DNA of 53,394 nucleotides from an uncultured bacterium. GTDB taxonomy: Bacteria > Electryoneota > Electryoneia > Electryoneales > Electryoneaceae. The DNA lies in assembly GCA_964648415.1 (NCBI GenBank), contig CAZYOC010000001.1:1-53394 (forward strand), given 5' to 3'. Made by a program: the position numbers and the translations under genes. Within the stretch, counting starts at the first letter, position 1. Each line of letters starts with the position of its first letter. Under the pieces are notes generated by a model. The model did no database searches. It had not been told where the DNA came from and saw only the letters and a list, made by a program, of their open reading frames with translations. Positions 14,484-45,619 of this stretch are shown here, in pieces.

Positions 14484-15053
14484 ATGGAACGTAAAGCGAA
14501 CTTTTTGCGACTGTTGCCGGGGCTGCTGATGTTTCTTGGGGGCACGCTGGACGTGGCCGCACGGCCCCCATTGGCGCACGAGGCGCAGGATCCTCGCGCG
14601 CAGGCGCATTCCGACCTGACCGTACTCTCGCATGAAGCCGGCATGACCATGGTGATCGGGGAGGGGCGAGGCCCGACGCCCGACCTGGCTCGCGGCGACG
14701 CCACCATTGTCGCGGAGGACCGTTTGATCGCGGCGCTCCACCAGCGGTTCCGTGAACTGGTTGAGCAAACCTCAAACGTTCTCGCCGGAGACAGCGGCGC
14801 ACTGAACGCGCTGGGTGGGTACGAGGACGCCTTCCAGGTGGAATCGATCCCTTACGAAGTCGTCAACACCAAGGTCTTCGAGGAACGCGGGCAGGTGGTA
14901 TGCTTGAGGCTGCTGGCTCTTTCCGACAGCAACATGGACCGCATCATTCTCGGGCACCTGCAGGGAGAAGACGCCTGGTACGCCCTGGTGAGATATTCCG
15001 AGCCCATCCGTGATCTGGAAGGGCGGGTTGATACGCAGGACAGCAACCATTGA
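14484..15053 (+). CDS. hypothetical exported protein immediately upstream of the giant gene
   Basis: GGAGG Shine-Dalgarno before ATG 14484. Signal-like N-terminus MERKANFLRLLPGLLMFLGGTLDVAA. GC3-rich codon pattern. It ends 52 nt before the giant ORF. Overlapping minus-strand ORFs lack ribosome-binding sites. Confidence 0.5.
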   Translation: MERKANFLRLLPGLLMFLGGTLDVAARPPLAHEAQDPRAQAHSDLTVLSHEAGMTMVIGEGRGPTPDLARGDATIVAEDRLIAALHQRFRELVEQTSNVLAGDSGALNALGGYEDAFQVESIPYEVVNTKVFEERGQVVCLRLLALSDSNMDRIILGHLQGEDAWYALVRYSEPIRDLEGRVDTQDSNH

Positions 15054-15105: not shown

Positions 15106-18100
15106 ATGAGAACATTGAGATTGATTTGTGTGTTGCTGTTGCTGACGGGCACAGCCTGGTCGTTTTCAGATGACTTTGAAACCGACCTGTCGCAATGGAC
15201 CGGGGACTGGGTCCGCACCAACGAGGCGGCCTACTCCGGGACGTGGTGTATTACGGAAAGCCCGGGCGGCGATTACGGTAACCTGGAATACAAGACCATC
15301 GAAATGGTTTCGGGCGAGGATCTCGACCAGGCGATCCTGGGCAGTGAGCTCACCTTCTGGGCGCGGTACGAGACGGAAGAACACTTTGATTTCTGGTATG
15401 TGGATATCTCGTTGGACGGCGGCCTTACCTGGAACCAGGAAGCTGCGTTTCATGGGACCGCCCTGACGTGGACACAATACACCGTTGACCTGGAAGGCTA
15501 CATTGGCAACAATGACGTCCGGGCGCGGTTCCGGTTCGACAGCGACCAGGCTGTGGTGGAGAACGGGGTCTGGATCGATAACGTCGAGATCACCATTACG
15601 GTTGATGATGTCAGCCCGCCCCTGGTGTTGCATGATGCCGTCCCGGTCGATTCCGCCATCGACGGTCAATATGACCCCGTCTTCACCGTCCGTGACCGAA
15701 GCGGCGTAGACTACGTCAACCTCTATTACAGGGTCAACGACAGCGACACCCTCCAGGCTCAGTTCGACTACCTCAACAACGACGATTACCATTTCGATAT
15801 TCCGCCCTACACACCGGGGTATCGTGTTACCTACTGGATAGAAGCCGGCGATAGCTGGACACCACAGAACGAGGACAGTTATGGTCCCTGGGAGTACTAT
15901 TGCGGGACCATGATCAGTTACGACAATGGCGTCAACGACGACGACATCATTGTCAACCAGGGGGCCGGCGGGCGGTTCGCCGTGGAATTCACCGACCCGG
16001 GCGACCCGGATCTCTACCTGGCGGCGGTGCTGTACGGGTTCTACCGCGATCCCGGCCGCACCATCGACAGTGTGGACTGTATTGTTTGGGACGACAACGC
16101 GGGCTGGCCGGGTAACCAGGTCATCGGAGAAATCCCCGTCTATCCGGAAAACACGCTGGCGACGCCGTACGCGGTGACACGGGTTGACATGGTTCCCTAC
16201 GACTATGAAATCAACGGGGACTTCCATGCCGGGTTCGAATACCGCTCCAATCGGCCCTACATCCTGGGCGACAACCCGGCGACACAGAACCGGTCCGAGC
16301 AGTACGACGGGGGCTGGTCCAACCTCAACCGCGATTTGCATATCCGGGCGCTGACCGGCGATATCTACGCCTATCTGCCCAACAACCCGACCGCGTTCCA
16401 ACTCGAGGAACCGGCCGACGAGGACACATCCGATACTGAAAACGTGACAGTCCGGTGGACTCAATCCACTGACAGCGACCCCAACGACTACATCCGGTAC
16501 GACCTGGAATGGTCGGTCAACTCCGACTTCTCGGCATCAAGTACTGTCACTATCACCGATACGTTCTACACCATCACCGGCCTGTCGGACAACACGACCT
16601 ATTACTGGCGGGTGAAATCCCGGGACGCGTTCCACAACGAAGAGTGGGCGGACCCGGGCGATACCGGCTACCAGTTTCATGTGTACACGCCGGAAAACCC
16701 CAACGTGTTCAACCTGACCAGCCCGGCCAATGCGTCGGTCTCCACCACCAGCGATGTGGTGTTGACCTGGGAGGCGGCTACGGACCCCGACCCGGACGAC
16801 GTGCTTACCTACGATGTCTATGTCAGCACCGATGCCGGAAATCTGGGGACGCCGGTGGCGACGGGCCTTTCCGCCACGACCTATACGTTCAGCGGCAACG
16901 ACGACACTCAGTACTGGTGGACGGTGCGGGCGGTGGACAACCACGGCCTCGAGACCCAGGCGATCCAGACCTGGCGCTTCAGCCTGGACATTGAAGATGC
17001 GCCCAATCCGTTTGATCTGGCCTCGCCGGCGGATGGTACCGTCTCGACGTCCACAGCGGTCACCCTTACCTGGAACGCCGCTACCGACCCGGACGGCGAC
17101 GCGCTGGTATATGACGTGTATGTCAGCACCGACGCCGGCAACCTGGGAACGCCCGTGGTCACCGGGATGACTCTGCTCAGCTACACTTTCAACGGGGTGG
17201 ATGACGAGACCTATTACTGGAGTGTGCGTGCGCGCGATCCGAGCAACAACTCCACCATGGCGAACCAGACCTGGAGTTTCTCCATTGAGGTGGAGGATCC
17301 GCCAGGGACGTTTGACCTGGCGTCACCCGCTAACGGGGCAGTTGAAACCGCCGCTACCGTAAACCTGACCTGGGACGCCTCGGTCGATCCCGACGGGGAT
17401 GCGGTGACGTATGACGTGTATGTCAGCACCAACGCCGGCAACCTGGGAACGCCCGACGCGACCGATCTGACGGTCACCAACTTTGCCTTCCCGGGCATTG
17501 ACGACCAGACCTATTACTGGACTGTGGTCGCCAAGGACCCCAACGGCAACGAGACCGACGCCAACCAGACCTGGTCTTTTTCCATCAACATCGGGCAGGC
17601 GCCTGACGCGTTCAGCCTGAGTTCACCAGCCGACGGGTATACGTCGGCATCGGCAACCGTGTCCCTCGCCTGGGACGCCACCACCGACCCCGATCCGGGG
17701 GATGATGTTACCTATTCGGTCTATGTCAGCACCAACGCCGGCAATCTCGGCGCGCCGGTGGCGACGGGCCTGACTGCGACGACCTACGACTTTACCGGCG
17801 TCAACAACAATACTTATTACTGGACCGTGAGGGCGGTGGATACCGACGGCCACAGTACGCAGGCGGACCAGACCTGGTCGTTTGATATCAGTGTCAACGC
17901 CGCGCCCCTGGCGTTCAACCTGACCAGTCCGGCCGACGGCAATACTGAAACCGCCACGGCAGTCGACCTTGATTGGGAGACGACTACCGATCCCGATGGC
18001 GACCCGTTGACGTACGATGTGTATGTCAGCCTGGACGCTTTTGACCTGGGAACGCCGGTGGCGACGGATCTCGGCGCCTCCAGCTACACCTACAACGGGA

Positions 18101-36100: not shown

Positions 36101-39100
36101 CGGACCAGACCTGGAGCTTCAGCATCGACGCTGCGCAGGCCAACCAGCCGCCGCTGGCGTTCGACCTGACCAGCCCGGCCGACGGCTATCAGTCGCCCAT
36201 GAACAGCGTGGATCTTGCCTGGCAGACCACCACCGACCCGGAAGGCGACCCGGTGAGCTACGATGTCTACATCAGCACCGTGCAGGGCTTCCCGGGCACT
36301 CGCTTCGCGGCGAACCTGACGAATACGAACTACACCTTTGACGGCGTCAACGGCGAGACCTACTACTGGACCGTGATCGCCGCCGATGAGAGCAACAACG
36401 AAACCCAGTCGACCACGACCCGCAGCTTCAGCATCAACACGGATGTGGCCGGCGATCCGCCGGTGGCGTTCGATCTGGCCTCGCCCGACAGCGGGTATGT
36501 GTCGGTGGAGACCGATGTTGACCTGACCTGGAACGCAACGAGCGATCCCGACGGCGGCGCCGTGACCTACGATGTCTACGTGAGCGATGACCCGGCCTAC
36601 CTGGGTGTGCAAGTTGCGCAGAACCTGAGCGGCACATCATACATGCACACCGGCGCGGACGGCGATACGCTGTACTGGACCGTGCGGGCGTACGACGAAG
36701 ATGGTATGTGGACCCAGGCGAGTCAGACCTGGTCCTTCAGCATTGATAGCGACCTGCCCGGCAGCGCCCCGGCGGCGTTTGATCTGGCGGCTCCCGACAA
36801 CAACACTGTCTCCCCGGTGGAGACAGTCACGCTGAGCTGGAACGCGACCAGCGATCCCGACGGCGGCGACGTGACCTACGAGGTCTTCGTCTCCACGCAG
36901 CTCGGTTTCCTCGGTACGCGGCTGGCCTCCAACCTGGGCGCAACCAGCTACGAGTTCGCCGGCAGCGACGGCGACCAGTACTGGTGGACCATCCGCGCGG
37001 TGGACGAGGACGGCATGTGGACGCAGGCGAACCAGACCTGGACCTTCAGCATCGACGCTACGCAGGCCAGTCAGCCGCCGTTGGCGTTCAACCTGGCCGG
37101 TCCCGACAGCGGGTATACTTCGCCGGATACGGATGTTCTGTTGAGTTGGTTCGATTCAGCCGATCCCGACGGCGAAGATGTGGAATATGATGTCTACGTC
37201 TCAACCGTACAGGGCTTCCTGGGCACACGTGTGGCCGGCGATCTCGCGGCTGCCAGCTACACCTATACCGGCAGCGACGGTGAAACCTACTGGTGGACCG
37301 TGCTGGCGGTGGACGGGGACGGCATGCAGACCCAGGCGAACCAGACCTGGAGCTTCTCGGTTGATACCAGCGTTCCGGGCAACGCGCCCAACGCGTTCAG
37401 TCTGGACAGCCCCATCGACGGCAGCGTGGAAACCAGCACGGCGGTGGACCTGGCCTGGGATGCGACCACCGATCCCGACGGCGACGATGTCACCTACGAT
37501 GTTTACGTCAGCCAGGTGCTTGGCTTCCCGGGAACCCGGATCGCGGCCAATCTGACCGATTTGACGACGACCTTCAACGGCCAGGACGGCGAAACCTACT
37601 ACTGGATGGTCTACGCCAAGGATCCCGACGGTCACCAGACGCAGGCAAACCAGACCTGGAGCTTCAGCATCGACGCGGAGCAGGTGGGCGAAGCGCCGCT
37701 GGCGTTTGACCTCGCCGCACCCGATAGCGGATTTGTCGCGCCGGAGACGATGGTGGACTTGAGCTGGAACGCCACCACCGATCCCGACGGCGATGACGTC
37801 AGCTACGCGGTGTATGTCTCCACCACGCAAGGCGTGTTCGGAGCGCCCCTCGCCAGCGGTTTAACGGCGACGTCCTATTCCTTCACCGGGACCAACGGCC
37901 AGGCCTACTGGTGGAAGATCATCGCGTCCGACACCAACAACAACGATACCGAGTCGACTCAGAGCTGGAGCTTCTCCATCGACACCAGCGTACCGGGAAC
38001 CCCGCCGCTGGCGTTCGAGCTGACCGGCCCGGACAGCGGGATGACCTTCGGGCAGGAAGAGGTCAGCCTGAGCTGGCAGACCACGACCGACCCGGACGGC
38101 GGCGCGGTGGGCTACGATGTCTACGTGTCCACGGTCCAGGGCGAACTGGGTACGCGTGTCGCGAGCGACCTGGGCGGCGCAGGCTACGAGTTCGCCGGAA
38201 CCGACGGCGAAACGTATCACTGGACCGTGCGGGCGGTGGATGAAGACGGCATGTGGACGCAGGCCGACCAGACCTGGAGCTTCAGCATCGACATCGCGGT
38301 TCCGGGCGACGCGCCGGGCGCGTTCGACCTGGCCACGCCAGCCGACGGCAGCACCGAGGGAGGCGTGGACGTGGACCTGACGTGGAACGCCTCCACCGAC
38401 CCCGACGGCGACGATGTGACCTACGAGGTCTACGTCAGCGAGATCGAGGGCTTCCTCGGCCAGCGAGTGGCGTCGGATCTGACCGTCACCACCTGGACCT
38501 TCACCGGCGTGGATAACGGCGAGTACTGGTGGACCGTGCACGCGTCTGATCCAAGCGGCCACGTGACCGCCGCCAACCAGACCTGGGGCTTCGACATCTT
38601 CGTGCAGGAGCCGCCGTTGCCCTTCAGTCTGGTATCCCCCGACAGCGGCTACCAGTCCGCCGATACGCTGGTCACGCTGAGTTGGCAGACCACCAGCGAT
38701 CCCGACGGCGATGACGTGCTGTACGATGTCTACGTCAGCGGTGACCCCGGCGACCTGGGCGACGCGGTGGTGACCGACCTCGCGGGGACGTCGTACGAAT
38801 ACGACGCTGAACGCGACACCACGTTGTACTGGACAGTGTTCGCCAACGACGGCGCGGGCAACGAGACCCAGGCGAGTGAGACCTGGAGCTTCAGCATTGA
38901 CGCGGAAGCGGTGGGCAATCCGCCGGCCGCCTTCAGCCTCGCCGCGCCCGACAGCGGTTCCCTGTCGCCGTATACCGACGTGGACTTGAGCTGGTTCGAG
39001 TCGACCGATCCCGACGGCGACGCGGTGACCTACGATGTCTACATCAGCACGGTGGAAGGCTTCCTGGGGCAGCGTGTGGCGCAGGATCTGACCGTCACCT

Positions 39101-42100
39101 CATACACATACACCGGCGTTGAGGGCGAAACCTACTGGTGGACCATCAAGGCGGTGGATGTCAACGGCAACCAGACGCAATCGACCGAAACCTGGTCGTT
39201 TGAGATTGATACGGACGTGCCGGGCTTCCCGCCGGTGGCGTTCGGACTGACCGGCCCCGACAGCGGGTATGTGTCGGCGGTGGAAGATGTGCTGCTGAGC
39301 TGGGCCGCCTCGAGCGATCCGGAAGGCGGCGCGGTGACGTATGATGTGTATGTGAGCACCGACCCGGCGGACCTGGGAACGCGTGTCGCGCAGGACCTGA
39401 CCGGAACGTCGTACGAGTTCACCGGCAGCGACGCGCAGACCTACTACTGGACCGTGCGCGCGATGGATGTGGACGGGCTCTGGACGCAGGCAGACGAGAG
39501 CTGGTCCTTCAGCATTGATACGACGGTTCCGGGCGACGCGCCGGACGCCTTCAGCCTGCTGACCCCGGCGGACAACTTCCAGTCCGCCACGCTCGACGTG
39601 GCGATGACCTGGGAAGCGAGCAGCGATCCTGACGGCGGCGCGGTGACCTATGACGTCTACGTCAGCACCGACCCGCTCTTCCAGGGTACGCGTGTCGCGT
39701 CCGACCTGGCCGGAACGTCGTACCTCTACACCGGCGTGAACGGGCAAGAGTATTACTGGACCGTGCGCGCGGTGGACGAGGACGGCATGTGGACCGAGTC
39801 GAGCGAGACCTGGAGCTTCTCCATCAATACCGGCACGGTTCCGCCTCAGAATGAAGCGCCGCTGGCCTTCGATCTGGCCGGACCCGACAGCGGGTACGTC
39901 TCACTGATCACCGATGTGGACCTGAGCTGGTTCGAGGCGGTGGACCCGGACGGTGATGAAGTCAGCTACGATGTCTATATCTCACCGGTCGAAGGCTTCC
40001 TTGGCGAGTTGGTTGCAGAAGATCTGGAAGGCGCATCCTATAGCTTTGCAGGAACAGATGGTGAGCTGTACTGGTGGACGGTGATCGCGACCGACGAGAA
40101 CGGCCTCTGGACACAAGCGACTCAGCAGTGGAGCTTCAGTGTCGAGGAGACGGTAATCGGCAGCGAACCCAACGCCTTCAGCCTGGTCAGCCCGGCAGAC
40201 GGGGTAACCTTGAACGATCTCGCCGTCACCCTGCAGTGGAACTCGACCACCGACCCGGACGGCGACGATGTGACCTACGAAGTCTACGCCTCGACAGTGG
40301 ACGGCTTCCTGGGCACACGTCTCGCGGCGGGCCTGACCATCACGTCCTACGACCTGACCGCCAGCGATGACACCCAGTACTGGTGGACCATCCGCGCGGT
40401 GGACGAGGACGGCAACTGGACCCAGGCCAACGAGACCTGGACATTCAGCATCTTCGTGGAAGACCCACCGGGACCGTTTACCCTGGCCGCGCCGGACTCC
40501 GGCGACACCGTACGCACCACCACGGCGGAGCTGAGCTGGTTCGAGTCGGTGGACCCGGACGGCGACGAGGTGACCTACAGCCTGTACGTCAGCACCGACC
40601 CGGCCAACATGGGCGCAGCGGTGACGACGGACCATGCGCCGACCTCGTATGCTTACGATGGGACCGACGGGGAAACCTACTGGTGGACCGTAACCGCAAC
40701 GGACGAGAACGCCAACTCCACGGCGGCGACCGATACCTTCAGCTTCACCATCGACGCCACCGTGATCGGCAACCCGCCGGAAGCCTTCAGCCTGGCGGCG
40801 CCGGACAGCGGCGATGTGTTGCCGTATACCCAGATCGACCTGAGCTGGTTCGAGTCGTTCGATCAGGATGGGCAGGATGTCACCTATTCGGTGTACGTGT
40901 CCACGGTGGAAGGCTACCTGGGCACCCGGATGGCGGCCAACCTGACCGTGACTTCCTATACCTTCACCGGCCAGGACGGCGAAACGTACTGGTGGACGGT
41001 GCGGGCGGTGGATGAGGACGGCAACGTCACCCAGGCCGACGAGACCTGGAGTGTCAGCATCGACCTGTCCAACTTCAACGAACCGCCAACGCCCGTCGTG
41101 CTGGCCTCGCCGCAGGACGGCTCGCTGGTCGGCTTCGAAGAAGTGGACCTGACCTGGTTCTCTTCCACCGATCCCGACGGCGGCGATGTTCTTTACGATG
41201 TCTACGTGTCGCTGACCGAGGACAACCTGGGGACACGCTACGGCGAGAACCTGGCCGACACCCTGTACACCTTTGACGGTGTCGACGAGGTGACTTACTA
41301 CTGGACCGTGGTCGCCAGGGACGAGGACCACAACCAGACGAGCAGCGAAAACTGGGACTTCACAATCCATACGGCCGGCGTACCGAGCCCGTTCGCGCTG
41401 CTGTCGCCCGACGACGACGCGCATATCGACGACGACACGGTGACTGTGGCCTGGAGCGAATCTGTCGACCCGGACAATGGCGACCCGATCACGTACCACC
41501 TGGAAGTCTCCACCGATGCCCAGTTCCAGCCGTATGTCACCTATACCACAGCGGATCTGCAATACACCATCGCCAACTTTATGGGCCTCGCCGCGCGGAT
41601 CAACGGTATGAAGGATGAGCAACCGCAGCCGCGCGAGGATGGGCGTGTGGACTTCCGTCCCAGCGGTTCCTTCGGCAGTGTGCGTGTCAGTGGCTTGGGC
41701 GTCGCGTCGCCGGGCGGCGGCGACGAGCTGGATGAACTGCCGGACGACCTGACGCTGTACTGGCGGGTGCGGGCCTACGACAACGACAACCTGTATACCT
41801 ACGGCGATCCGGGCGAAAGCGGCCGCAGCTTCACCACCGACCAGGTGGAAGCGCCGGAAGCGTTCAGCCTGCTGAGCCCGTCCGAAGGCGACACCGTGTG
41901 GTCTTCCGAGACCCTGATGAGCTGGGAAGCCGCCACTGACCCGGACCCGTACGATACGCCTCACTACGATATCTGGCTGGATGACAGCAGCGACATGAGC
42001 GGCGCGTCGCTGGCAGCCGACAGCATCGCCGCCGACAGCTTCACCATGACCGGCCTGCTGGACGACCAGACCTACTGGTGGACGGTCCGCGCGACCGACA

Positions 42101-44400
42101 GCAACACCGAGGGAACCTGGGCGCAGGATACCCTGTCGATGCACGTGTACATCGTGGAGCCGCCCGACGCCTTCACCATGGCGTATCCGGGCGACGGCGA
42201 CACGGTGGACGCGGAAGAGGTGACGGTAACCTGGAACCGGGCAAGCGATCCCGACCCGGGCGACGCGGTGAGCTACGAGATCCAGTGGTCGGCGGATGCG
42301 GACTTCAGCACCGTCAACACCGGCACAACCAGTGACACGTTCTTCACCATCAGCGACCTGAGCGAGCTGATGGTCGCCTCGCAGCCTTGCGCTGACGGGG
42401 AGATCACGCTGCGCGGCGGCATGGAGCTGTTGCGTGACAGCCGTCGAGGCGGCAGTGTGGAGCTTGGTAGCGGACGCAGTCGCGGGCCGGTGGCGGAGCT
42501 GAACGAGCAGCCGAGCGAGGGTGCGACCGGCTTCTCCTCCAGGCAGCGCGAAAAAATCGGACGGACGGAGCGCAGCCGCGGCAAGGGCCGCGCCGCACTG
42601 AACAGCCTGACAGAAGAACGCGGCACAAATCTCGCACCTCACCGCCGTGGCAGCGGCCCGACCGGCGTTACGGGGCTGGATCAGCGTGTCGGCGGCACGG
42701 GCGAGCTGGACGAGCTGCCGGACAACAGCACCATCTACTGGCGGGTGCGGGCGATCGACAGCTTCGACAGCACCACCTGGGCGGACGGCGACAGCACCGG
42801 CCGAGCGTTTGACGTCATCCGCGCCGATGCGCCGAGCACCTTCAGCCTGCTGACCCCGCAGAACGGCAGCAGCCTGGATCAGAGCACGGCCACGCTGAGC
42901 TGGCAGACCTCGAACGATCCCGATCTGGACGGCGCCGTGCCCAGCTACCGTGTCTGGTGGGCCACCGATCCGCAGTTTGACAACGTCGATTCGGCGGACG
43001 TAAACGATACCGAACTGAACCTGGACAACCTGACCGACGACACCGTGTACTGGTGGAAAGTCCGCGCACTGGACGACAACACCGAGGGCACCATGTCGCG
43101 CCAGGTCTGGGCGTTCCAGGTCTTCATCCCCGAGCGGCCGACAGCGTTCAGCTTGCGGCAGCCGGCGAACAACGGTGTCGCCACCGAAGACAGCGTCACC
43201 CTGACCTGGACCCGCGCCAGTGATCCCGACCCGGGCGACAGCCTGCAGTATCGTGTCGAATACTCGACCGACAGCGCGTTCCCGGCCGGAGATACCGAGG
43301 TCGCCACGGTCCGCGACACCTTCCTGCTGATCAGCGGGCTGGAAGCGGACTACGACGACCGGACGCTCTACTGGCGGGTGCAGGCGGAAGACCTGTTCGG
43401 CATGACACGGTACGGCGAGCCGGGCGAGAATGGCCGCCAGTTTGACGTGCGCATCGCTCATCCGCCGCTGCCCTTCGAGCTGGTCAGTCCGTCGGCCAAG
43501 TCCATTATTGCGGACACCGTGGTCTCCTTTAGCTGGGAGAGCAGCAGTGATCCCGACATGGAAGACACGCTGCGGTACGAGCTGTGGGTCAGCACAACCA
43601 ACGACTTTGATGAGGACAACACCACGGTGTATCCGGACATCGCCAACGCGCAGTATGTGTTGACCGGCTTGCTGGACGACCGCGTGTACCACTGGAAAGT
43701 CAAGGCGGTGGACAGCAACACGGACGGTACCTGGTCCACCGATCAGGGCTCGTTCCAGACGTCTCGTCCCGAACCGCCGACCCCGTTCGACCTGGTGCGC
43801 GTCATGGACGGCGACACGTTGAACGCCGACGAGATCCGCAACCTGCTGTTCGAGTGGAAAGCGTCGCACGATCCCGATCCGGGTCAGGAGGTGAAGTACC
43901 TGCTGGTTCTCGACGAGGAGCAGGATTCCAGCGCGACAGAAGAAGCGATTCATCTGGAGCTGACCGTCCGCGAAGCGCCGTCGTTCGTCGTACCGGTGCG
44001 CAGCGAGCTGGAAGACACGTTCTGGGACGAGATGCTGCACTTCACTTGGTACGTGAAGGCGGTTTCGGGCGCGGATACGGTGGAGAGCGGCAGCCGGTTC
44101 AGCTTCCACGTGGCACCGAACCAGAAGGATGTCCCGACCACCTTCAGCATGGGCGCGCCTTATCCGAACCCGTGCAATCCGACCACGCAAGTGAAGGTCG
44201 GCTTGCCGAGCTCGGCGCATGTGCGCATTGAAGTCTTTGACATGCTGGGCCGGCGGGTGGACATCATTACCAGCCGGCAGTACGCCGCCGGTTATCACCA
44301 GTTCTTCTGGACGGCGGAAGGCGCGTCCGGGACGTACATCATGCGGGTGACGACATCCGCCGGCTGGTCGGACATTCGGAAGATTGTATTCTTGAAATAG
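15106..44400 (+). CDS. giant (9,764 aa) cell-surface protein: signal peptide, beta-sandwich head, 89 FN3-like modules, T9SS C-terminal sorting domain
   Basis: A single ORF with no stop for 29,295 nt. GGAGGA at 15093-15098 lies 7 nt before the ATG. Signal peptide MRTLRLICVLLLLTGTAWS. Repeating module: P.AF.L.SP..G......V.L.W....DPDGD.VTYDVYVS...G.LG..VA..L..T.Y.F.G.D..TYYWTV.A.D..GN.T...QTWSF. The C-terminus is YPNPCNPTTQVKVGLPSSAHVRIEVFDMLGRRV...GTYIMRV...IRKIVFLK. Confidence 0.92.
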   Translation: MRTLRLICVLLLLTGTAWSFSDDFETDLSQWTGDWVRTNEAAYSGTWCITESPGGDYGNLEYKTIEMVSGEDLDQAILGSELTFWARYETEEHFDFWYVDISLDGGLTWNQEAAFHGTALTWTQYTVDLEGYIGNNDVRARFRFDSDQAVVENGVWIDNVEITITVDDVSPPLVLHDAVPVDSAIDGQYDPVFTVRDRSGVDYVNLYYRVNDSDTLQAQFDYLNNDDYHFDIPPYTPGYRVTYWIEAGDSWTPQNEDSYGPWEYYCGTMISYDNGVNDDDIIVNQGAGGRFAVEFTDPGDPDLYLAAVLYGFYRDPGRTIDSVDCIVWDDNAGWPGNQVIGEIPVYPENTLATPYAVTRVDMVPYDYEINGDFHAGFEYRSNRPYILGDNPATQNRSEQYDGGWSNLNRDLHIRALTGDIYAYLPNNPTAFQLEEPADEDTSDTENVTVRWTQSTDSDPNDYIRYDLEWSVNSDFSASSTVTITDTFYTITGLSDNTTYYWRVKSRDAFHNEEWADPGDTGYQFHVYTPENPNVFNLTSPANASVSTTSDVVLTWEAATDPDPDDVLTYDVYVSTDAGNLGTPVATGLSATTYTFSGNDDTQYWWTVRAVDNHGLETQAIQTWRFSLDIEDAPNPFDLASPADGTVSTSTAVTLTWNAATDPDGDALVYDVYVSTDAGNLGTPVVTGMTLLSYTFNGVDDETYYWSVRARDPSNNSTMANQTWSFSIEVEDPPGTFDLASPANGAVETAATVNLTWDASVDPDGDAVTYDVYVSTNAGNLGTPDATDLTVTNFAFPGIDDQTYYWTVVAKDPNGNETDANQTWSFSINIGQAPDAFSLSSPADGYTSASATVSLAWDATTDPDPGDDVTYSVYVSTNAGNLGAPVATGLTATTYDFTGVNNNTYYWTVRAVDTDGHSTQADQTWSFDISVNAAPLAFNLTSPADGNTETATAVDLDWETTTDPDGDPLTYDVYVSLDAFDLGTPVATDLGASSYTYNGTNGNTYYWTVRAKDDNGNETSANQTWSFDISVNDPPTAFSLASPADATTSSTASVTLTWDASTDPEGGPITYNLYVSTDAGDLGTPVASGLTGTSNTFNGSDDTQYYWTVRAYDSAGNMTQADQTWSFDVYVEESPAAFNLAAPGDGSTMGATAVNLSWDASTDPDGDAVTYDVYVSTDAGNLGTPVATDLAGTSYTYNGTDLTTYYWTVYARDPNGNQTQAIETWSFDIDVDYAPDAFNLLTPADGTVSSTVAVPLTWESTTDADGETITYDVYVSTDAGNLGTPVATDLSATSYTFNGADNTTYYWTIRAKDGANETQANQTWSFSTDEEFAPDPFNLTSPSDFHIFNSTTTIALDWEATTDPDGDPVTYDVYVSTTQGDLGTLVADDIAVSNYDFSGSDGEEYWWTVFAFDDNGNSTQSNQTWKFSIFIQEVPGAFDLLDPTNGETVYTLDVPLSWEASVDPDPGDNVVYDVYVGTQIWNLGQVATGVTGTSYTYTGIDGNTYYWTVDARDAVGNTTTASQTWSFTIDYEPPPAAFNLTSPADGTVSGTNSVDLDWETTTDPDGGAITYDVYVSTDPGNMGAAVATGLNTTSYTFNGSDDTQYYWTVHALDPDGGETTANQTWGFSIYVEEAPGAFDLSSPADAATEPAATVSLAWDASVDPDGDAVTYDVYVSTDAGNLGTPVATDLSATTYDFTGSDNTTYYWTIQAKDPNGNATDANQTWSFDIFVDDPPDAFSLASPADGSTQGAATVSLTWNAATDPEGLAVTYDVYVSTDAGNLETPVTTDLAATTYDYTGSDNTTYYWTVHAKDPAGNETPASETRSFDIYVEEAPGAFDLTGPADGSTQTSLTVTMTWDASTDPDGDDVTYDVYASTDAGDVFSNQVASDLTAATYDFTGSDNTTYYWSVRAKDPNGNETDANQTWSFDIVYDDPPDAFSLDSPADASTSPTATVSLAWNSTTDPEGQDVTYDVYVSTDMGTLFDAPVESDLSVLTYDFAGLDDSTYYWTVRAKDENGNERQASETWTFDIYVEEAPDAFNLLSVADGTTSNTLTVDLAWESTSDPDGDNITYDVYVSTDAGDLGTPVAADLNVTIYTFTGLDDSTYYWTVFAKDPNGNETQATQTWSFDIYVEEAPDAFSLTSPADVSTQTSTTVTLTWNASADPDGDAVTYDVYVSTDAGNLGAPVATDLTVLTYDHTGSDDVTYYWTVVAKDPNGNETQASETWSFEIYIEEAPGAFDLASPADGTTSSTATVTLTWNASTDPDGDAVVYDVYVSTDAGDLGTPVATDLGALTWDFTGLDDSTYYWTVHAKDGNGNDVAANQTWSFDIYVEEAPDAFSLASPADASTQTSTTVTLAWNATTDPDGDAVTYDVYVSTDAGNLGTPVATDLTVLTYDHTGSDDQTYYWTVVAKDPNGNETPASETRSFDIYIEEAPQAFDLSSPADSYVSPVTNVALTWDATTDPDGDAVTYDVYVSTDAGNLGTPVATDLSALTYNYTGSDDQTYYWTVVAKDPNGNETSAASTWSFDIYIEEAPGAFDLASPADGSVQGATTVTLTWNTSTDPDGDAVTYDVYVSTDAGNVFGSPVATDLNATTYDFTGSDNQTYFWSVRAKDPNGSVTTANQTWDFEIYVEEAPGAFSLTSPADGSTLGAITATLEWGASVDPDGDAVTYDVYVSTDLGTLFDAPVATDLTVRSYDHTGSDNTTYHWAIIAKDPNGNETQSTQTWSFDIYVEEAPVAFDLTSPADATVSSTTTVTLNWNSTIDPDGDAVTYDVYVSTDAGNLGAPVATDLVASSYDYTGSDDQTYYWTVRAKDPNGNETQANQTWSFSIYVEEAPNAFSLTSPADATVSPAVDVTLNWNSTTDPDGDPVTYDLYVSTDAGNLGTPIASDITVTTYDFTGTDDETYYWTVVAKDGNGNETQATQTWSFSIYVEEAPNTFSLAGPASGTVSGAVDVALSWNSTTDPDGDAVTYDVYVSTDAGNMGTPVASDLTTTNYTFTGSDNTQYWWTVRAKDPNGNETQASQTWSFSIYVEEAPNPFTLANPPDGSTHESENVTVTWNLTTDPDGDPIYYDIYISTDPGDMGTPVVDSLPGPSYTYTGNDLTTYYWTVVAYDDNGNETQANQTWSFFIDIEHEPGEFDLAGPNSGWISPSATVTLEWETSVDPDGDPVTYDVFLGPTAGSLTETVSDLTDTTYEFTGNDDSQYWWTVQASDDNANEVWADNTWNFSIYVEEAPGAFSLSSPADGHTAPDTLVALSWTASVDPDGDPVSYDVYVSTDPGDLGMPVASDVTGTTYTFDGEDDTQYYWTVTAKDNNSNSTPVGETRSFSIYREEAPQPFTLVSPANGAVMGTSTVTLTWNTTTDPDGDAVTYDVYVSTDAGTLFDTPTATDLTSATYDFSGSDDTRYHWGVVAKDPNGNETQSTNTRYFDIYVEEAPGAFTLTSPANGQVMGATSVSLQWSASVDPDGDPVVYDVYVSTDAGDLGTPVAGGISATQWTFNGSDDVTYYWSVTARDNHSNSTPVGETRSFSIYVEESPLAFNLTSPANGTISGSATVTLNWAATSDPDGDDVTYDVYVSTDAGNMGTPVASDLTVNNYIFNGNDDTRYYWTVRAKDPNGNETQANQTWWFETYVEEAPSTFSLVSPDSGNVMGATAVTLQWNASTDPDGDPVRYDVYVSTDAGNLGTPVATNLTGTSYTYNGSDDTQYWWTVRARDNNGNATNASETWSFDIYVEEPPSAFSLVNPADGTVSPTTAVDLSWNTSTDPDGDDVTYDVYVSTDAGNLGTPVASDLTTTSYTFNGSDDTSYYWTVRAKDPNGNETQATQTWQFEIYVEEGPDAFSLSSPADGTVSGSATVSLVWNTTTDPDGDAVTYDVYAGTDAGDLLSSPVATDLTVANYDFTGLDDSTYTWTVIAKDPNGNETQASETWTFSIYVEEPPPAFSLLTPTDASTEPATDVELTWEPAPDPDGDDVTYDVFVSLDPGDLGTAVATGLTTTSHTFSGDDDSTYTWTVRANDTNGNSTDATETWTFDIHVEEAPLAFNMISPADGAVSPNAAVTLQWQNTTDPDGDTVVFDVYVSHDAGDLGTPVATDLSTTSYTYTGDDDSTYYWSVFARDGNGSETQASNGIWEFSIYVEEAPGAFSLLSPVNGAIRSTATVNLQWTASVDPDGDAVTYDIFVSTDPGNMGTPVQTGVTATSWTFNGNDDTQYWWTVRANDPNGNQTMATNTRTFSIYVEEAPEPFSLLSPADGTVSGTDEVTLIWENTIEPDGDPVEYDLYVSTDLNNLGTPIADNITDTTYSFTGSDDQTYYWTVVAYDDQNNDTPADQTWSFEIYIEEPPSAFALATPDSGIVSPDTVVTLTWDRSTDPDGDALTYDVYVSTDMNNLGTPVAENLTDTSYTFTGDDDTQYWWTVEVDDGNGNVVQADQTWSFDIDVEDVPDTFTLLSPADGSTSPTATVDLTWQSTSDLDSDPITYDLYVSTDLNNLGAPVQTGLTDTTASFTGSDDTAYWWTVIADDGNGNTVAATDTFGFDIYVEEYPNAFALLSPDSGHVSPGTDVTLIWTSTSDPDGDAVSYDLFISTDMNNLGAAVATDLTDTSYAFTGNDDTEYWWTVVAGDVNGNETAAPDTFSFSIYVEEGPGAFTLATPADGSVEPDTDVLLIWDTSTDPDGDAVTYDLYLANDVGGLATPYQTGLTDTFYTFTGTDNTSRLWTVVAGDPNGNTTAAADTFSFDIYVEEPPAAFDLVAPDSGWTSPWLDVDLSWDYSSDPDGDVLFYDVYVSTDQGNPGAPVMTDLTDSTWTFAAVHGNTYWWTVEVDDGNGNVVQASQTWSFEVDTSLAGQAPLAFDLASPDSGATIATEDVLLTWFPTTDPNGDDIVYDVYVHQAQGQLLTTPVATDLTNTSYTYTGVHDTPYWWTIIARDPIGNQTQANQTWRFHVHTANPGNAPGAFSLTGPDSGWVSPSTDVLLSWEESIDADGDDVLYDVFVSQTAGVIGTRVASNLNGTSYIHSGGNGDTLYWTVQAKDPSGNYTQANETWSYSIDVSGADQPPTAFGLAGPSDGSVQPVTDVLLSWEPSSDPEGMDVSYEVYASTVQGFLGSRVASDLTGLSYTFTGSNNETYYWTIIAYDEAGNSTQSDETWSFAVDTSQQNNAPAAFSLVSPDSGWTSPSADVLLSWESTTDPDGDNVTYDVYLSTSSSDIGTRVAANLTGTSYTHTGADGDTLFWTVRAVDTYGNQTQSSETWSFDIDLGNANQPPAAFTLASPSDGYVSPSTDVLMTWETSSDPEGGAVTYDVYVSTVPGFLGTRVAHDLSGASHTFTGSDATSYYWTVIAADADGNTTQSDVTWAFEIDLTQANNPPNAFSLAAPDSGWTSPSTDVLLSWENATDPDGDNVTYDVYISSTSSDIGTRVASGLTGTSYSHSGSDGDTLFWTVRAVDDNNNQTQSTESWSFDIDLGNANQPPAAFTLASPSDGYVSPATDVLMTWEASSDPEGGAVTYDVYVSTIAGFPGTRVAHDVSGTSHTYSGSDGETYYWTVIASDADGNTTQSDVTRSFEIDLTQANNAPEAFSLVAPDSGWTSPSTDVLLSWESATDPDGDAVTYDLYISTTSADIGTRIANGLTGTSYSYTGSDGDTLFWTIRAVDAFGNQTQSTESWSFDIDLGNANQPPAAFTLASPSDGYVSPATDVLMTWQGTTDPEGGAVTYDVYVSTTPGFLGTRVANDLNATNYTFTGSDAATYYWTVIAADASGNTTQSTDTWSFEIDLGNADSAPTAFSLVAPDSGWTSPNTDVLLSWQASSDPDGGDVTYDLYTSATSADIGTRIASGLTGTSYSYSASDGDTLFWTIRAVDAGNNQTQSTQSWSFTIDISVANDPPAAFTLVSPADGFVSPATDVLLTWNTTTDPEGAGVTYDVYASTTPGFLGTRIADNLAGTSYTFTGSDGETYYWTVIASDPSGNFTQADETWSFEIDTPVSNNAPNAFSLTAPDSGWASPSADVVLSWEETTDPDGEEVSYEVYISTVQGFIGTRVASGLTGATYIHTGVTGETYFWTVRAVDPNGDATQSTETWAFSIDTDNANDPPVAFTLVSPLNGHVSPSPDVLLTWNGATDPEGGDVEYDVYVSTVPGFLGARVAAGLSGTSYSYTGVDGETYYWTVVAEDVDGNRTQADETWSFSIDESQATTPPTAFSLTSPADGFASTNSLVIMTWNESTDPDGGNVSYDVYLSTVDGFIGVRMATGLSLPTYAFNGTPGETYWWTVRAVDDSGEETQSNETRSFSIDNTVTGQPPAAFSLTAPDSGHVSPVETVTLSWDVTTDPDGDAVTYDVYVSDDPVDLGTADVTGLAGTSWDFTGTDGETYYWTVRASDGNGNDTQAGETWSFSIDASLPGDPPNAFDLASPADGSTEFYQDVQLVWNSTDDPDGDAVTYDVYVSDVDGFLGSRIAQDLTDTTATFTGVDGTQYWWTVQAVDATGRSTQANQTWSFTIDVNYPVESFSLLAPDSGYVSGNEDVLLSWEHAVDPEGEDVTYDVYVSTDPGDLGTPVADDLAGASYSFTGTDGQTYWWTVEAWDGDVAVTPADQTWSFSIDTGTVPPGNDPPNAFSLAGPDSGFVSPVTDVLLSWEASADPDGDAVTYDVYLSLSESFLGSRIASGLTETNYTCSSSDGDQWYWTIVASDEYDATTQSSETWSFSIDTGAVPPDNDPPNSFTLASPDSGFISPEQDVLLTWNQAIDPDGDAVTYEVYVSMVQGDLGTRVAANLTGTSYSYTGTDGALHWWTVRALDSNNQATFADQTWRFGVNTGSTPPGNDPPNAFSLASPSDGFVSPVTDVLLTWNQATDPDGDDVTYEVYLSADPAFVGTRMASGLTGTSWNFSGTDDEEWYWTIRALDTEDQSRLSTETWSFSIDTGTVPPGNDPPNSFALVAPDSGHVSPDFSVNLSWETAVDPDDDEVTYDVFVSSVQGELGARVAAELTGTSFEYTGIDGQQYWWTVKAYDSNNLLTDADQTWSFSIDAAQANQPPLAFDLTSPADGYQSPMNSVDLAWQTTTDPEGDPVSYDVYISTVQGFPGTRFAANLTNTNYTFDGVNGETYYWTVIAADESNNETQSTTTRSFSINTDVAGDPPVAFDLASPDSGYVSVETDVDLTWNATSDPDGGAVTYDVYVSDDPAYLGVQVAQNLSGTSYMHTGADGDTLYWTVRAYDEDGMWTQASQTWSFSIDSDLPGSAPAAFDLAAPDNNTVSPVETVTLSWNATSDPDGGDVTYEVFVSTQLGFLGTRLASNLGATSYEFAGSDGDQYWWTIRAVDEDGMWTQANQTWTFSIDATQASQPPLAFNLAGPDSGYTSPDTDVLLSWFDSADPDGEDVEYDVYVSTVQGFLGTRVAGDLAAASYTYTGSDGETYWWTVLAVDGDGMQTQANQTWSFSVDTSVPGNAPNAFSLDSPIDGSVETSTAVDLAWDATTDPDGDDVTYDVYVSQVLGFPGTRIAANLTDLTTTFNGQDGETYYWMVYAKDPDGHQTQANQTWSFSIDAEQVGEAPLAFDLAAPDSGFVAPETMVDLSWNATTDPDGDDVSYAVYVSTTQGVFGAPLASGLTATSYSFTGTNGQAYWWKIIASDTNNNDTESTQSWSFSIDTSVPGTPPLAFELTGPDSGMTFGQEEVSLSWQTTTDPDGGAVGYDVYVSTVQGELGTRVASDLGGAGYEFAGTDGETYHWTVRAVDEDGMWTQADQTWSFSIDIAVPGDAPGAFDLATPADGSTEGGVDVDLTWNASTDPDGDDVTYEVYVSEIEGFLGQRVASDLTVTTWTFTGVDNGEYWWTVHASDPSGHVTAANQTWGFDIFVQEPPLPFSLVSPDSGYQSADTLVTLSWQTTSDPDGDDVLYDVYVSGDPGDLGDAVVTDLAGTSYEYDAERDTTLYWTVFANDGAGNETQASETWSFSIDAEAVGNPPAAFSLAAPDSGSLSPYTDVDLSWFESTDPDGDAVTYDVYISTVEGFLGQRVAQDLTVTSYTYTGVEGETYWWTIKAVDVNGNQTQSTETWSFEIDTDVPGFPPVAFGLTGPDSGYVSAVEDVLLSWAASSDPEGGAVTYDVYVSTDPADLGTRVAQDLTGTSYEFTGSDAQTYYWTVRAMDVDGLWTQADESWSFSIDTTVPGDAPDAFSLLTPADNFQSATLDVAMTWEASSDPDGGAVTYDVYVSTDPLFQGTRVASDLAGTSYLYTGVNGQEYYWTVRAVDEDGMWTESSETWSFSINTGTVPPQNEAPLAFDLAGPDSGYVSLITDVDLSWFEAVDPDGDEVSYDVYISPVEGFLGELVAEDLEGASYSFAGTDGELYWWTVIATDENGLWTQATQQWSFSVEETVIGSEPNAFSLVSPADGVTLNDLAVTLQWNSTTDPDGDDVTYEVYASTVDGFLGTRLAAGLTITSYDLTASDDTQYWWTIRAVDEDGNWTQANETWTFSIFVEDPPGPFTLAAPDSGDTVRTTTAELSWFESVDPDGDEVTYSLYVSTDPANMGAAVTTDHAPTSYAYDGTDGETYWWTVTATDENANSTAATDTFSFTIDATVIGNPPEAFSLAAPDSGDVLPYTQIDLSWFESFDQDGQDVTYSVYVSTVEGYLGTRMAANLTVTSYTFTGQDGETYWWTVRAVDEDGNVTQADETWSVSIDLSNFNEPPTPVVLASPQDGSLVGFEEVDLTWFSSTDPDGGDVLYDVYVSLTEDNLGTRYGENLADTLYTFDGVDEVTYYWTVVARDEDHNQTSSENWDFTIHTAGVPSPFALLSPDDDAHIDDDTVTVAWSESVDPDNGDPITYHLEVSTDAQFQPYVTYTTADLQYTIANFMGLAARINGMKDEQPQPREDGRVDFRPSGSFGSVRVSGLGVASPGGGDELDELPDDLTLYWRVRAYDNDNLYTYGDPGESGRSFTTDQVEAPEAFSLLSPSEGDTVWSSETLMSWEAATDPDPYDTPHYDIWLDDSSDMSGASLAADSIAADSFTMTGLLDDQTYWWTVRATDSNTEGTWAQDTLSMHVYIVEPPDAFTMAYPGDGDTVDAEEVTVTWNRASDPDPGDAVSYEIQWSADADFSTVNTGTTSDTFFTISDLSELMVASQPCADGEITLRGGMELLRDSRRGGSVELGSGRSRGPVAELNEQPSEGATGFSSRQREKIGRTERSRGKGRAALNSLTEERGTNLAPHRRGSGPTGVTGLDQRVGGTGELDELPDNSTIYWRVRAIDSFDSTTWADGDSTGRAFDVIRADAPSTFSLLTPQNGSSLDQSTATLSWQTSNDPDLDGAVPSYRVWWATDPQFDNVDSADVNDTELNLDNLTDDTVYWWKVRALDDNTEGTMSRQVWAFQVFIPERPTAFSLRQPANNGVATEDSVTLTWTRASDPDPGDSLQYRVEYSTDSAFPAGDTEVATVRDTFLLISGLEADYDDRTLYWRVQAEDLFGMTRYGEPGENGRQFDVRIAHPPLPFELVSPSAKSIIADTVVSFSWESSSDPDMEDTLRYELWVSTTNDFDEDNTTVYPDIANAQYVLTGLLDDRVYHWKVKAVDSNTDGTWSTDQGSFQTSRPEPPTPFDLVRVMDGDTLNADEIRNLLFEWKASHDPDPGQEVKYLLVLDEEQDSSATEEAIHLELTVREAPSFVVPVRSELEDTFWDEMLHFTWYVKAVSGADTVESGSRFSFHVAPNQKDVPTTFSMGAPYPNPCNPTTQVKVGLPSSAHVRIEVFDMLGRRVDIITSRQYAAGYHQFFWTAEGASGTYIMRVTTSAGWSDIRKIVFLK
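15163..16380 (+). other. N-terminal non-repeat head of the giant protein (jelly-roll MAM/LamG-like domain plus further beta-sandwich regions)
   Basis: FSDDFETDLSQWTGDW...YSGTWCITESPGG...TFWARYETEEHFDFWYVDISLDGGLTWN...RARFRFDSDQAVVENGVWIDNVEI has the pattern of MAM/choice-of-anchor-type beta-sandwich domains. This call is by eye only. Confidence 0.5.
16696..29319 (+). repeat. type A FN3-like module array: 42 modules of ~300 nt (100 aa), linker ..SF.IYVEE
   Basis: Counted module by module from the translation: 12,624 nt / 42 = 300.6 nt per unit. Confidence 0.85.
29320..41382 (+). repeat. type B FN3-like module array: 39 modules of ~309 nt (103-106 aa), longer linker ..SFSID(x6-9)
   Basis: Counted from the translation: 12,063 nt / 39 = 309.3 nt per unit. 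SPDSG(W/Y/F)xSP and GFLGTR variants distinguish it from type A. Confidence 0.85.
41383..44130 (+). repeat. type C divergent FN3-like modules (7), two carrying large Arg/Gly-rich insertions
   Basis: These modules keep the L.W....DPD and (L/V)YW(R/K)V.A.D landmarks but are much more diverged. They resemble module 1 (16384-16695) at the other end of the array. Confidence 0.7.
44131..44397 (+). other. T9SS C-terminal sorting domain of the giant protein
   Basis: VPTTFSMGAPYPNPCNPTTQVKVGLPSSAHVRIEVFDMLGRRVDIITSRQYAAGYHQFFWTAEGASGTYIMRVTTSAGWSDIRKIVFLK aligns by eye with the CTDs of the CDSs at 5011, 11423 and 50309. Confidence 0.8.
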
Positions 44401-44473
44401 AAGGGACAGCGGTGCCACGGCTTGATTCCGTGGCAGGGCAGTCGTGGCGCCGTCAACGTCCCGGGGAGGACAC

Positions 44474-45619
44474 GTGAAACACGTGCTCAAAACACTTCTT
44501 TTGCTGGGCCTGCTGCTTGGTGCGAGCGCAGCGCCCGCTCAACAGTCTTTCGTGATCGACGTGGTCACCGAAGGCGCCGGCATCTCGCCGCCGGTCAGCG
44601 AGCTGCTCATCGAGGACCCGTTCCCGATGTTCAGCCTGCTTGATCTGCACATGCTGGAACGCTACGACAGGGACTACTTCGGCATGTGGGACCGGGCGGA
44701 GGGCTATCTGCTCAGCGTACACTCGAATACCGTGGCCACCATGTCGCGTTCCTACAGCGCCTGGCAGTTCCCGGCCTACCTGTTCTACAAGGACTGGGTG
44801 TTCGGGCTCACGCTGCCGTTGGTGGAGGGACGCCGGTTCTCATATCGCGGCGACCGGCAGGGAGCGTCCGGGTTCGGCGACATCGCCATGACGCTGGGGT
44901 ACTCCTACCCGTTGCCGGTGGACATCAGCTATGCGGCGGCCATGACCATCAAGTTTCCGACAGCCAACAGCGGAGCCTACCGCAGCCGCTTGAACACGCC
45001 ACTGGGCACCGGCGCGCCGGACCTGATTTTCAGCATCAACCTGCAGCATACCATGACCTTCGGCGATGTACAGGTGCTGGGGCAGTGGAGGGGCAACGGG
45101 GACCGGACCTACGAGCTGATCGCCCATGACCCCAACGACCCCACGCATATCGTGGAGACAGAATACGATGTGCGCAACGGCAACGCCCTGCTGGTGAAAG
45201 CCCTGTACAACCACCGCTTCATCGGGCTGAACTTCTTTGATTACGTGGACCTGGATTTCGACGCTTACAGCGGTCTGCACCTGAAGCACCTCTACGCCGC
45301 CGGGTATACCGAGTGGACCAAACATGACAACCAGACCGGCGGGTTCTCGTCGAGTTTCCCCGGACACCCCTCGCTTACCACGCTGGAGTGGTTCATAGGC
45401 GCCAACTACTTCTACGCTCCCTTCACCGGGCGCGCGCAGCTTGTGCTGCCGCTGGGTGTCAACCACGGCGGCCGAACCGCCGAAAACTACCGAGATGTGG
45501 AGTTTCGCCTGGGCCTCACCTGGTTCTGGGCGATGGATATGAGCCCGCGTCAACTGAGGAACCACCAGTTGAGAGAGCGGATCAAGGAACGTCAATATCG
45601 TGAACGGTCACGCCGCTAA
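44474..45619 (+). CDS. outer-membrane beta-barrel protein (MetA-pathway/transporter-like family resemblance)
   Basis: GGAGGA at 44465-44470. The GTG 44474 start (or 44483/44444) gives the signal peptide (V)KHVLKTLLLLGLLLGASAAPAQQ. GFGD and PTANSG...LGTGAPD motifs and strand-like periodicity are present. The last strand is LGLTWFW, followed by a basic tail. Only 16 nt separate it from the next gene. Confidence 0.7.
   Translation: MKHVLKTLLLLGLLLGASAAPAQQSFVIDVVTEGAGISPPVSELLIEDPFPMFSLLDLHMLERYDRDYFGMWDRAEGYLLSVHSNTVATMSRSYSAWQFPAYLFYKDWVFGLTLPLVEGRRFSYRGDRQGASGFGDIAMTLGYSYPLPVDISYAAAMTIKFPTANSGAYRSRLNTPLGTGAPDLIFSINLQHTMTFGDVQVLGQWRGNGDRTYELIAHDPNDPTHIVETEYDVRNGNALLVKALYNHRFIGLNFFDYVDLDFDAYSGLHLKHLYAAGYTEWTKHDNQTGGFSSSFPGHPSLTTLEWFIGANYFYAPFTGRAQLVLPLGVNHGGRTAENYRDVEFRLGLTWFWAMDMSPRQLRNHQLRERIKERQYRERSRR

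Follow-up and report, generated by a model that had tools for sequence, protein, structure and literature searches.

Probable layered ancestry of an 89-module array in a giant, predicted type IX-secreted protein of an uncultured Electryoneaceae bacterium

The 53,394-nt stretch of DNA analysed here (the window) covers the initial 53 kb of a contig of 90.7 kb (CAZYOC010000001.1, assembly GCA_964648415.1) from the genome of an uncultured bacterium of the Electryoneaceae (G000), a metagenome-assembled genome (MAG) of 4.4 Mb in 392 contigs. It contains a single uninterrupted open reading frame (ORF) encoding a giant protein of 9,764 aa, in which 89 tandem modules of predicted fibronectin type III (FN3) fold separate an N-terminal head from a C-terminal domain of the type IX secretion system (T9SS). 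The module array probably has a layered history, with a frame of one module type (C), expansions of two further types (A and B) that mostly took place before the split from the only known congener, and later pair-wise turnover in the interior. We estimate the probability of this reading at about 0.75.

A hidden Markov model built from the regular repeats gave 91 hits along aa 425–9669, corresponding to 89 modules (M1–M89) after two insertion-split ones were rejoined, which is the number that the original prediction had given on reading the DNA alone. Tandem Repeats Finder saw the array only in part, since it is limited to periods of 500 nt and the copies have low identity. The module period was 99–101 aa in M2–M44 and mostly 103 aa in M45–M82, where modules of 106 aa (M62–65 and M78) and of 100 aa (M61, M74 and M80) were interspersed. 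The extents previously proposed for M1 (16384–16695) and for M83–89 (41383–44130) lay within a few codons of those found here (Table 1), and the proposed blocks of about 100 aa (A) and 103–106 aa (B) were also recovered, with the border at 44/45 instead of 43/44, a difference of linker assignment only.

The three position-bound module families are real. On a tree of the codon-aligned nucleotide sequences, the positional labels required 4 changes compared to a mean of 34.6 when the labels were shuffled (0 of 200 shuffles as low), which confirmed the expected clustering by position. A branch with a support of 97 split subtype C1 from all other modules. One side of a single branch held 35 of the 38 B modules, the exceptions being M45, M74 and M80, the last of which was placed among the A modules. 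Trees in which either A or B was forced into one clade were not rejected by the approximately unbiased test (p-AU 0.96 and 0.93, respectively) and in fact beat the quick free search, and the trees are thus consistent with the two separate expansions that had been suggested. The mean nucleotide identity was 0.64 among A modules, 0.61 among B modules and 0.48 among C modules, the last being mutually 35–46% identical in protein, so that the edges are indeed more diverged, as claimed.

The type C modules were found to comprise two subtypes, C1 (M1, M83, M85 and M87; ..LYWRV..D...G.PG..G..F) and C2 (M84, M86 and M88; ..YWW.V.A.D.NT.GT), with M89 being aberrant. The genome encodes at least 14 further ORFs with at least four such modules, and most of them end in a T9SS tail, mostly of type A. 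Alternating C1 and C2 modules make up nearly all of these paralogues. They include proteins of 5,251 aa, 3,468 aa, and 2,518 and 2,429 aa, as well as one of at least 6,648 aa that is truncated by the end of its contig, and are located on G000 contigs C28, C22, C48, C67, C43, C95, C126, C148, C62, C68, C114 and C5; the pair on C67 is broken by a run of N. Each C module of the giant protein was nearest to a module of a paralogue (protein identity 0.43–0.58), whereas identities within its own protein only reached 0.39–0.46. M1, for instance, matched a C1 module of the paralogue on contig C48 best (0.48), while no module of its own protein exceeded 0.46. The A and B modules, in contrast, were nearest to each other (0.62–0.90), with no paralogue module exceeding 0.60, and in a tree of 248 modules a split with a support of 96 grouped all C modules of the window with those of the paralogues. 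That the C modules lie nearer to the paralogues than to the rest of their own protein points to type C as an ancestral scaffold and not a set of old copies of this array. Judged from these comparisons, type C is the ancestral FN3 pair of the whole family, with A and B specific to this gene. The proposal that type C forms one family of old array copies thus gives way to two alternating subtypes common to the paralogues.

The same gene was found in the only congener in the collection (G001), whose genome is closed in a single contig of 5.45 Mb (OY769902.1). The syntenic orthologue encodes approximately 10,350 aa with 95 modules (O1–O95; one C1, 47 A, 40 B and seven C), and most of the array is colinear with that of the window on a one-to-one basis (M1–17 with O1–17, M27–31 with O29–33, M32–47 with O36–51, M58–61 with O66–69, and M64–89 with O70–95). 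Reciprocal best hits were obtained for 62 of the 84 position-aligned module pairs, many pairs received supports of 95–100 in joint trees, and the well-supported pairs were offset by 0, +2, +4, +8 and +6 along the array. All differences in count between the species, each of them even, fall inside A or B, and the comparison of 89 with 95 modules therefore agrees with the interior growth that had been proposed. One of the differences is a clear pair duplication by these trees: O35 branches as the sister of the M31/O33 orthologues (support 100/96), which indicates that O32–33 was duplicated to O34–35 in the G001 lineage. The nonsynonymous divergence (dN) between orthologues was approximately 0.18 for A and 0.19 for B, compared to medians of 0.38 and 0.47 between paralogous modules within A and B, respectively. 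Most duplications would therefore predate the split of the species, as the one-to-one map also requires. Younger pairs were found in the zones of turnover, with a dN of 0.08 for M49/M51 and 0.05 for M18/M20. No further orthologue of giant length was detected in a word-index protein search with the head or in a scan of Joint Genome Institute (JGI) metagenomes, and a scan of genome contigs gave only OY769902.1.

One of these zones is a strict two-module higher-order repeat in M46–M57, where the nucleotide identity between modules i and i+2 was 0.81–0.86, compared to 0.61–0.65 between direct neighbours, and where modules of the same parity were on average more alike (0.726 vs 0.623, p 6e-11). Peaks at i,i+2 were also present locally in A, and the orthologue displayed the same pattern, while no global even/odd periodicity was observed in A or in M58–82. 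Within the core of this repeat, M48–M54 and the corresponding O52–O63 formed species-specific clades (supports of 98/98 and 97/93). One class of the G001 core copies branched with the orthologue pair M47/O51, and M49, M51 and M53 branched outside it. The descent of these G001 copies from the M47/O51 lineage suggests independent amplification of different ancestral pairs in the two species, which would fit the tree better than positional conversion. The A centre similarly contained small species-specific clades (M18/20/23 and M24/25 vs O18/20/21 and O25/27), flanked on both sides by one-to-one pairs with supports of 98–100. Finally, the 106-aa pair is present twice in the window and once in the orthologue: M62 and M64 share an identity of 0.71, and M63 and M65 of 0.73, with O70 and O71 as the respective partners of M64 and M65 in the tree and with M62 and M63 placed immediately outside these pairs. 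All of the closest pairs in the array (M49/51, M51/53, M18/20 and M50/52) are interior.

Even these copies are far from identical. The closest pair, M49/M51, reached 85.7% nucleotide identity, with no pair above 86%, in-register runs of identity between modules extended to 45 nt at most, and neighbouring modules were 38–78% identical in protein. The synonymous divergence (dS) was at least 0.37 in every pair, with medians of 1.16 within A, 0.93 within B and 1.0–1.15 between types, which corresponds to saturation. The interior can consequently not be called homogenised, as the original prediction had it, and its copies are not young either, as most A and B duplications are older than the split of the species and none is recent. 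Synonymous divergence did not set the types apart, the within-type medians being the same as those between types. Similarity rose significantly from edge to centre within A (rho 0.54, p 2e-4), but not within B (rho 0.12). Dating by dS was dropped, given a within-genome plateau at approximately 1.0–1.15 and orthologue values of 1.4 or undefined. The ratio dN/dS of the closest pairs was 0.07–0.4, in line with purifying selection on the coding sequence.

The history that we favour would be as follows. The region would form the stalk of a T9SS-secreted surface protein, approximately 0.3 micrometre in length, in which the 89 tandem FN3 modules may serve to hold the head far from the cell. The C1/C2 modules would represent the ancestral frame, beside the head and the secretion tail, and A and B would be two gene-specific expansions set between the C modules. 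Nearly all growth would have preceded the split from the congener, leaving most modules as stable, individually conserved one-to-one orthologues, and any later change in length would have been limited to the A centre, M46–57 and M62–65, in even numbers of modules. A likely cause would be that alternate modules, which are more similar, recombine out of register or slip against each other, amounting to birth and death of module pairs, with gene conversion acting only as rare, short patches. We infer both unequal recombination as the mechanism, although slippage during replication would produce this pattern equally, and the direction of the individual gains and losses. An identical run of 45 nt is near the minimum needed by RecA, and the run observed here is a possible recombination substrate.

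Several observations weigh against this history. Four net changes that all happen to be even amount to a coincidence of only about 1 in 16, and with two genomes only carrying the gene and no outgroup, gains look the same as losses. The ages assigned to the copies rest on dN, which also reflects constraint, since synonymous sites are saturated for most pairs, and B lacks the significant gradient from edge to centre that A displays. In a fragmented MAG, near-identical copies could moreover have been collapsed by the assembly. The same ceiling of 82–86% identity in the closed G001 genome, however, argues against such a collapse. Finally, the C modules evolve faster between the orthologues than the others, with a median dN of 0.28 and values up to 0.51 (Mann–Whitney U test, p 4e-4). 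The divergence of the edges would thus be due in part to rate rather than age, and the assumption that divergence can be read as age alone does not hold (0.28 for C vs 0.18 for A).

The last point is also the basis of the strongest alternative, in which the contrast between edges and interior stems from functional constraint instead of age, with modules beside the head and the anchor evolving faster or performing other tasks. The higher orthologue dN of C is what this explanation would lead one to expect, and the saturated dS, within as well as between types, cannot date the copies. In addition, two of the C1 modules carry fast-evolving loop insertions: a low-complexity stretch in M83 and an Arg/Gly/Ser-rich one in the homologous loop of M85, both of which end in ELDELPD. 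The insertions occur at the same sites in the orthologue, where their sequences are unrelated low-complexity stretches of different lengths and only the (G/S/T)-ELDELPD anchor is conserved. M83–M89 nevertheless correspond one-to-one to O89–O95, at a dN of 0.24–0.51. A difference in rate alone is insufficient to explain why the C modules are nearer to paralogue modules and group with them in the family tree. Furthermore, M1 clearly belongs to C1 although its rate is low (dN 0.17), and the differences in count between the species are interior whatever the rate. We therefore consider constraint a possible but rather doubtful substitute for the layered history.

Concerted evolution was considered as a second alternative, in which ongoing conversion homogenises the interior and the species-specific clades are products of conversion. 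In the core of the super-repeat, identities within a species (0.81–0.86) do exceed those between species (0.70–0.77), and one clear patch, already noted in the earlier reading of the sequence, postdates the split. This patch, located in M40 and M44, is identical at 50 of 51 nt, while the two modules are approximately 65% identical outside it, and the orthologous O44 and O48 are 63% identical across the same segment. The identity of M44 to O48, approximately 0.8 elsewhere, falls to 0.60–0.67 in the patch. The absence of the patch from O44/O48, together with the departure of M44 at this place, indicates a tract copied into M44 after the split, with M44 as the likely recipient. Such patches were rare, however: in-register matches of 45 nt with at most one mismatch numbered only seven among 3,916 module pairs, and one in the orthologue, with several of the seven lying on conserved motifs. 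Long identical runs were mostly dropped as proof of conversion for the same reason, several of them falling on the codons of the conserved DPDGD-TYDVYVS motif. Paralogues were closer than orthologues only in the hot zones (M48–54, parts of M18–26, and M32/34), a distribution that does not suggest concerted evolution across the array. Conversion would also leave unexplained why the two species have different numbers of modules precisely in these zones (10 vs 14 and 9 vs 11) and why one class of G001 copies derives from the M47/O51 lineage and not from the positional counterparts, and the 86% ceiling and the minimum dS of 0.37 are high divergences for copies under homogenisation. Concerted evolution is thus an unlikely source of the pattern.

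Somewhat less likely still is that the protein is a chimera that gained its C-type ends when its gene recombined or fused with a paralogue for another giant T9SS protein. The paralogues have both the C1/C2 modules and the tail domain in common with it, M85 is 58% identical to a module of the C48 paralogue while its best match in its own protein is 46%, and the head is also present on a short protein of 813 aa. With identities to paralogues of no more than 58%, however, any exchange would be ancient and would look the same as common descent. The C block is shared with the orthologue, insertions included, and the succession of M1 (C1) and M2 resembles the remnant of a C1–C2-like pair. A mis-assembly of repeats in the short-read MAG that set the order and number of modules is highly improbable: one paralogue in the 392-contig assembly is cut by a contig end and another contains a run of N, but the modules of the giant gene share no identical run longer than 45 nt, follow those of the single-contig congener one by one, and remain in an open frame over 29.3 kb.

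The assignment of the modules to the FN3 fold, a beta sandwich of approximately 100 residues, is supported by profile and model. The Pfam fn3 model (cut-off 25 bits) matched the M1 region with 53.5 bits and the C block with 82.4 bits, and a profile of 86 modules matched titin A77–A78 (1e-7), the FN3 domain of chitinase A1 (3e-7) and FN3 domains of RPTP-delta. The A and B stretches alone gave SusE or Ig_Rha78A_N above the cut-off, with other Ig-like models being weaker. An AlphaFold2 (AF2) model of M20, with the other 85 modules as alignment, reached a predicted local distance difference test (pLDDT) score of 97.4 and is a beta sandwich with eight strand segments according to DSSP. Its top matches in Foldseek were 3mpc (Fn3-like), 5g56, 1k85 and titin FN3 domains, with template modelling (TM) scores of 0.55–0.70, so that Fn3-like domains of bacteria and the FN3 domain of chitinase A1 stand beside titin among the closest structures. 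The giant protein as a whole is strongly acidic, with 11.8% Asp, 0.5% Lys, 0.1% Cys and a net charge of approximately -1,340, and an acidic loop of the D-P-D/E-G-D type is kept in every A and B module (16687–41361). A stiffening of the stalk that depends on Ca and acts through these loops is plausible as a prediction.

The C-terminal tail matched the T9SS type A model TIGR04183 with 33.2 bits (cut-off 23) and was the only type matched, the score with PF18962 (24.4 bits) being under its cut-off of 27. The tail is 84% identical in the orthologue. A SprA/Sov translocon (TIGR04189, 517 bits) is encoded by a 2,279-aa ORF on contig C55. By its tail domain and the presence of the translocon in the genome, the giant protein is assigned as a T9SS type A cargo. 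Its N-terminus (MRTLRLICVLLLLTGTAWS/FSDD) reads by eye as a putative Sec signal peptide. The head gave a weak match to an InhA-like MAM domain (PF20773, 27.5 bits) and a weak choice-of-anchor J match. It had no match among PDB sequences, and an AF2 model from three sequences was unusable (pLDDT 44). Its identity is 75% with the orthologue head and 46% with that of the 813-aa T9SS protein, which lies on the minus strand of contig C28 of G000 at approximately 3068–5506, just downstream of the gene for the 5,251-aa giant protein. The 813-aa protein carries the same head of approximately 400 aa followed by unrelated domains, without an FN3 array, and has a counterpart of 821 aa in G001. The occurrence of one head on both the 813-aa and the giant protein suggests a portable module that can be placed on stalks of very different lengths. 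Homologues of 640–820 aa were found in other families, which suggests that the giant form is so far known only from this genus.

Table 1. Features of the giant gene and differences in module number from the orthologue (positions in the window)
Feature	Position	Strand	Remarks
Giant gene	15106..44400	+	Signal peptide (by eye), head, 89 FN3 modules (predicted fold), T9SS type A C-terminal domain
N-terminal head, approximately 405 aa, all-beta	15163..16377	+	Weak MAM / choice-of-anchor J matches
Module 1, subtype C1	16378..16686	+	Clusters with M85 and M87 at a support of 91, among the C1 modules set apart by the branch of support 97
Type A array, M2–M44, 43 modules	16687..29604	+	99–101 aa; short acidic linker I-Y-V-E-E-A-P
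Turnover zone in the A centre, M18–M26	21493..24198	+	9 modules vs 11 in the orthologue
Conversion patch, putative donor side, M40	28333..28383	+	50/51 nt identical to 29533–29583
Conversion patch, likely recipient side, M44	29533..29583	+	M44 departs from O48 here
Type B array, M45–M82, 38 modules	29605..41361	+	Mostly 103 aa; linker 3–6 aa longer
Two-module (618-nt) higher-order repeat, M46–M57	29917..33624	+	i,i+2 identity
Super-repeat core, M48–M54, youngest copies	30532..32697	+	Species-specific clades
Two copies of the 106-aa pair, M62–63 and M64–65	34852..36123	+	One pair in the orthologue
C-terminal type C block, M83–M89	41362..44112	+	(C1–C2) x3 and aberrant M89; tree, fn3 82 bits
Low-complexity loop insertion in M83, 49 aa	41590..41736	+	
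Arg/Gly/Ser-rich insertion in M85, 118 aa	42361..42714	+	Homologous loop
T9SS type A C-terminal sorting domain	44161..44397	+	TIGR04183, 33.2 bits (cut-off 23)
Modules between M17 and M27			Window 9, G001 11
Modules between M31 and M32			Window 0, G001 2 (O34–35)
Modules between M47 and M58			Window 10, G001 14
Modules between M61 and M64			Window 2, G001 0

The giant gene is flanked by an ORF of 189 aa upstream (14484–15053) and one of 391 aa downstream (44444–45619). Neither gave a match to a known family, and the 391-aa ORF did not match a PorP/SprF model at E <= 0.001. Both hold the same positions beside the orthologue in G001, where they are 64% (189 aa) and 66% (391 aa) identical, and this conserved arrangement in the two species suggests that they probably belong to one unit with the giant gene. 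Further downstream, a protein of 792 aa (45635–48013) has a C-terminal FGE-sulfatase / GldK-PorK-like domain (PF03781, 8e-48; TIGR03525, 92 bits, below the cut-off) preceded by a long N-terminal part. Two further genes for T9SS type A cargo are located upstream of the giant gene, both on the minus strand (5011–8316, 1,101 aa, and 11423–12412, 329 aa). The sole truly young repeat in the window is a 147-nt tandem repeat at 2051–2510 (3.1 copies, 97% identity), which encodes a Lys/Glu/Asp/Ala-rich stretch in the ORF at 1607–2530.

The mode of growth proposed here is already known for repeat proteins, and the array is a clean example of it. Domain repeats have generally been found to expand in the middle of the array, by several domains at once, such that neighbours are less alike than domains one period apart (PMC1553488, Bjorklund, Ekman and Elofsson 2006). 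The same pattern is seen here, with domains one unit apart being more alike in M46–57 and both the closest pairs and the differences in count being interior. Several domains are likewise duplicated at once in the 7-domain super-repeat of nebulin and the FN3/Ig super-repeats of titin (PMC1553488), the number here being two. Compared to the cases in that study, the present array is bacterial and intron-less, has a pair as its unit, and was checked against a positional orthologue; positional orthology frees such a check from reliance on internal similarity alone. Periscope proteins such as SasG/Aap, Rib and Sgo_0707 SHIRT change in module number between strains, with neighbouring modules being 82–100% identical in protein (PMC8201768, Whelan et al. 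2021). The giant protein resembles them in that a head sits distally on a long stalk made of globular domains in tandem, the number of which differs between relatives. Its neighbouring modules, in contrast, are only 38–78% identical, with a maximum of 85.7% in DNA and a longest run of 45 nt, values that fall short of the high identity seen in periscope proteins, and the difference between 89 and 95 modules separates two species with saturated synonymous sites.

The higher-order repeats of satellite DNA have homogenised cores and diverged edges. The array shares with them the diverged flanks and a multi-monomer core with lineage-specific turnover; it differs in being a coding array under purifying selection, and its core copies are far less alike, at only 81–86% identity. 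A further relevant protein is SprB of Flavobacterium johnsoniae, a giant T9SS adhesin of the Bacteroidota that has a type B tail and needs the adjacent sprF. As in SprB, a repetitive filament of several thousand residues would be exported by a type IX system. The giant protein, however, has a type A tail instead of the TIGR04131 / CHU_C tail, and a 391-aa neighbour without a match in place of an adjacent PorP/SprF.

A more speculative and, on present evidence, improbable extension of the layered history is that the array acts as a slow, pair-wise regulator of length, in which selection accepts new copies only when they come as two unlike neighbours and the interior zones serve as length-adjusting cassettes. 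The ceiling at approximately 86% in both species and the turnover in units of two modules led to this idea. If it were true, misfolding between identical adjacent FN3 modules would be avoided in a 0.3-micrometre stalk, in a lineage with more than a dozen such fibres.

The comparison traces in good resolution how a very long domain array of a bacterium arose, separating an ancestral frame, gene-specific expansions and the places at which the length still changes. It further suggests that fast-varying arrays of the periscope type do not account for all giant repeat proteins in MAGs: the present array is old, with every bead conserved in its own right, and this points to selection on the full length of the stalk. 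For annotation, the analysis defines a C1/C2 pair family of FN3 modules that many T9SS proteins in this lineage would share.

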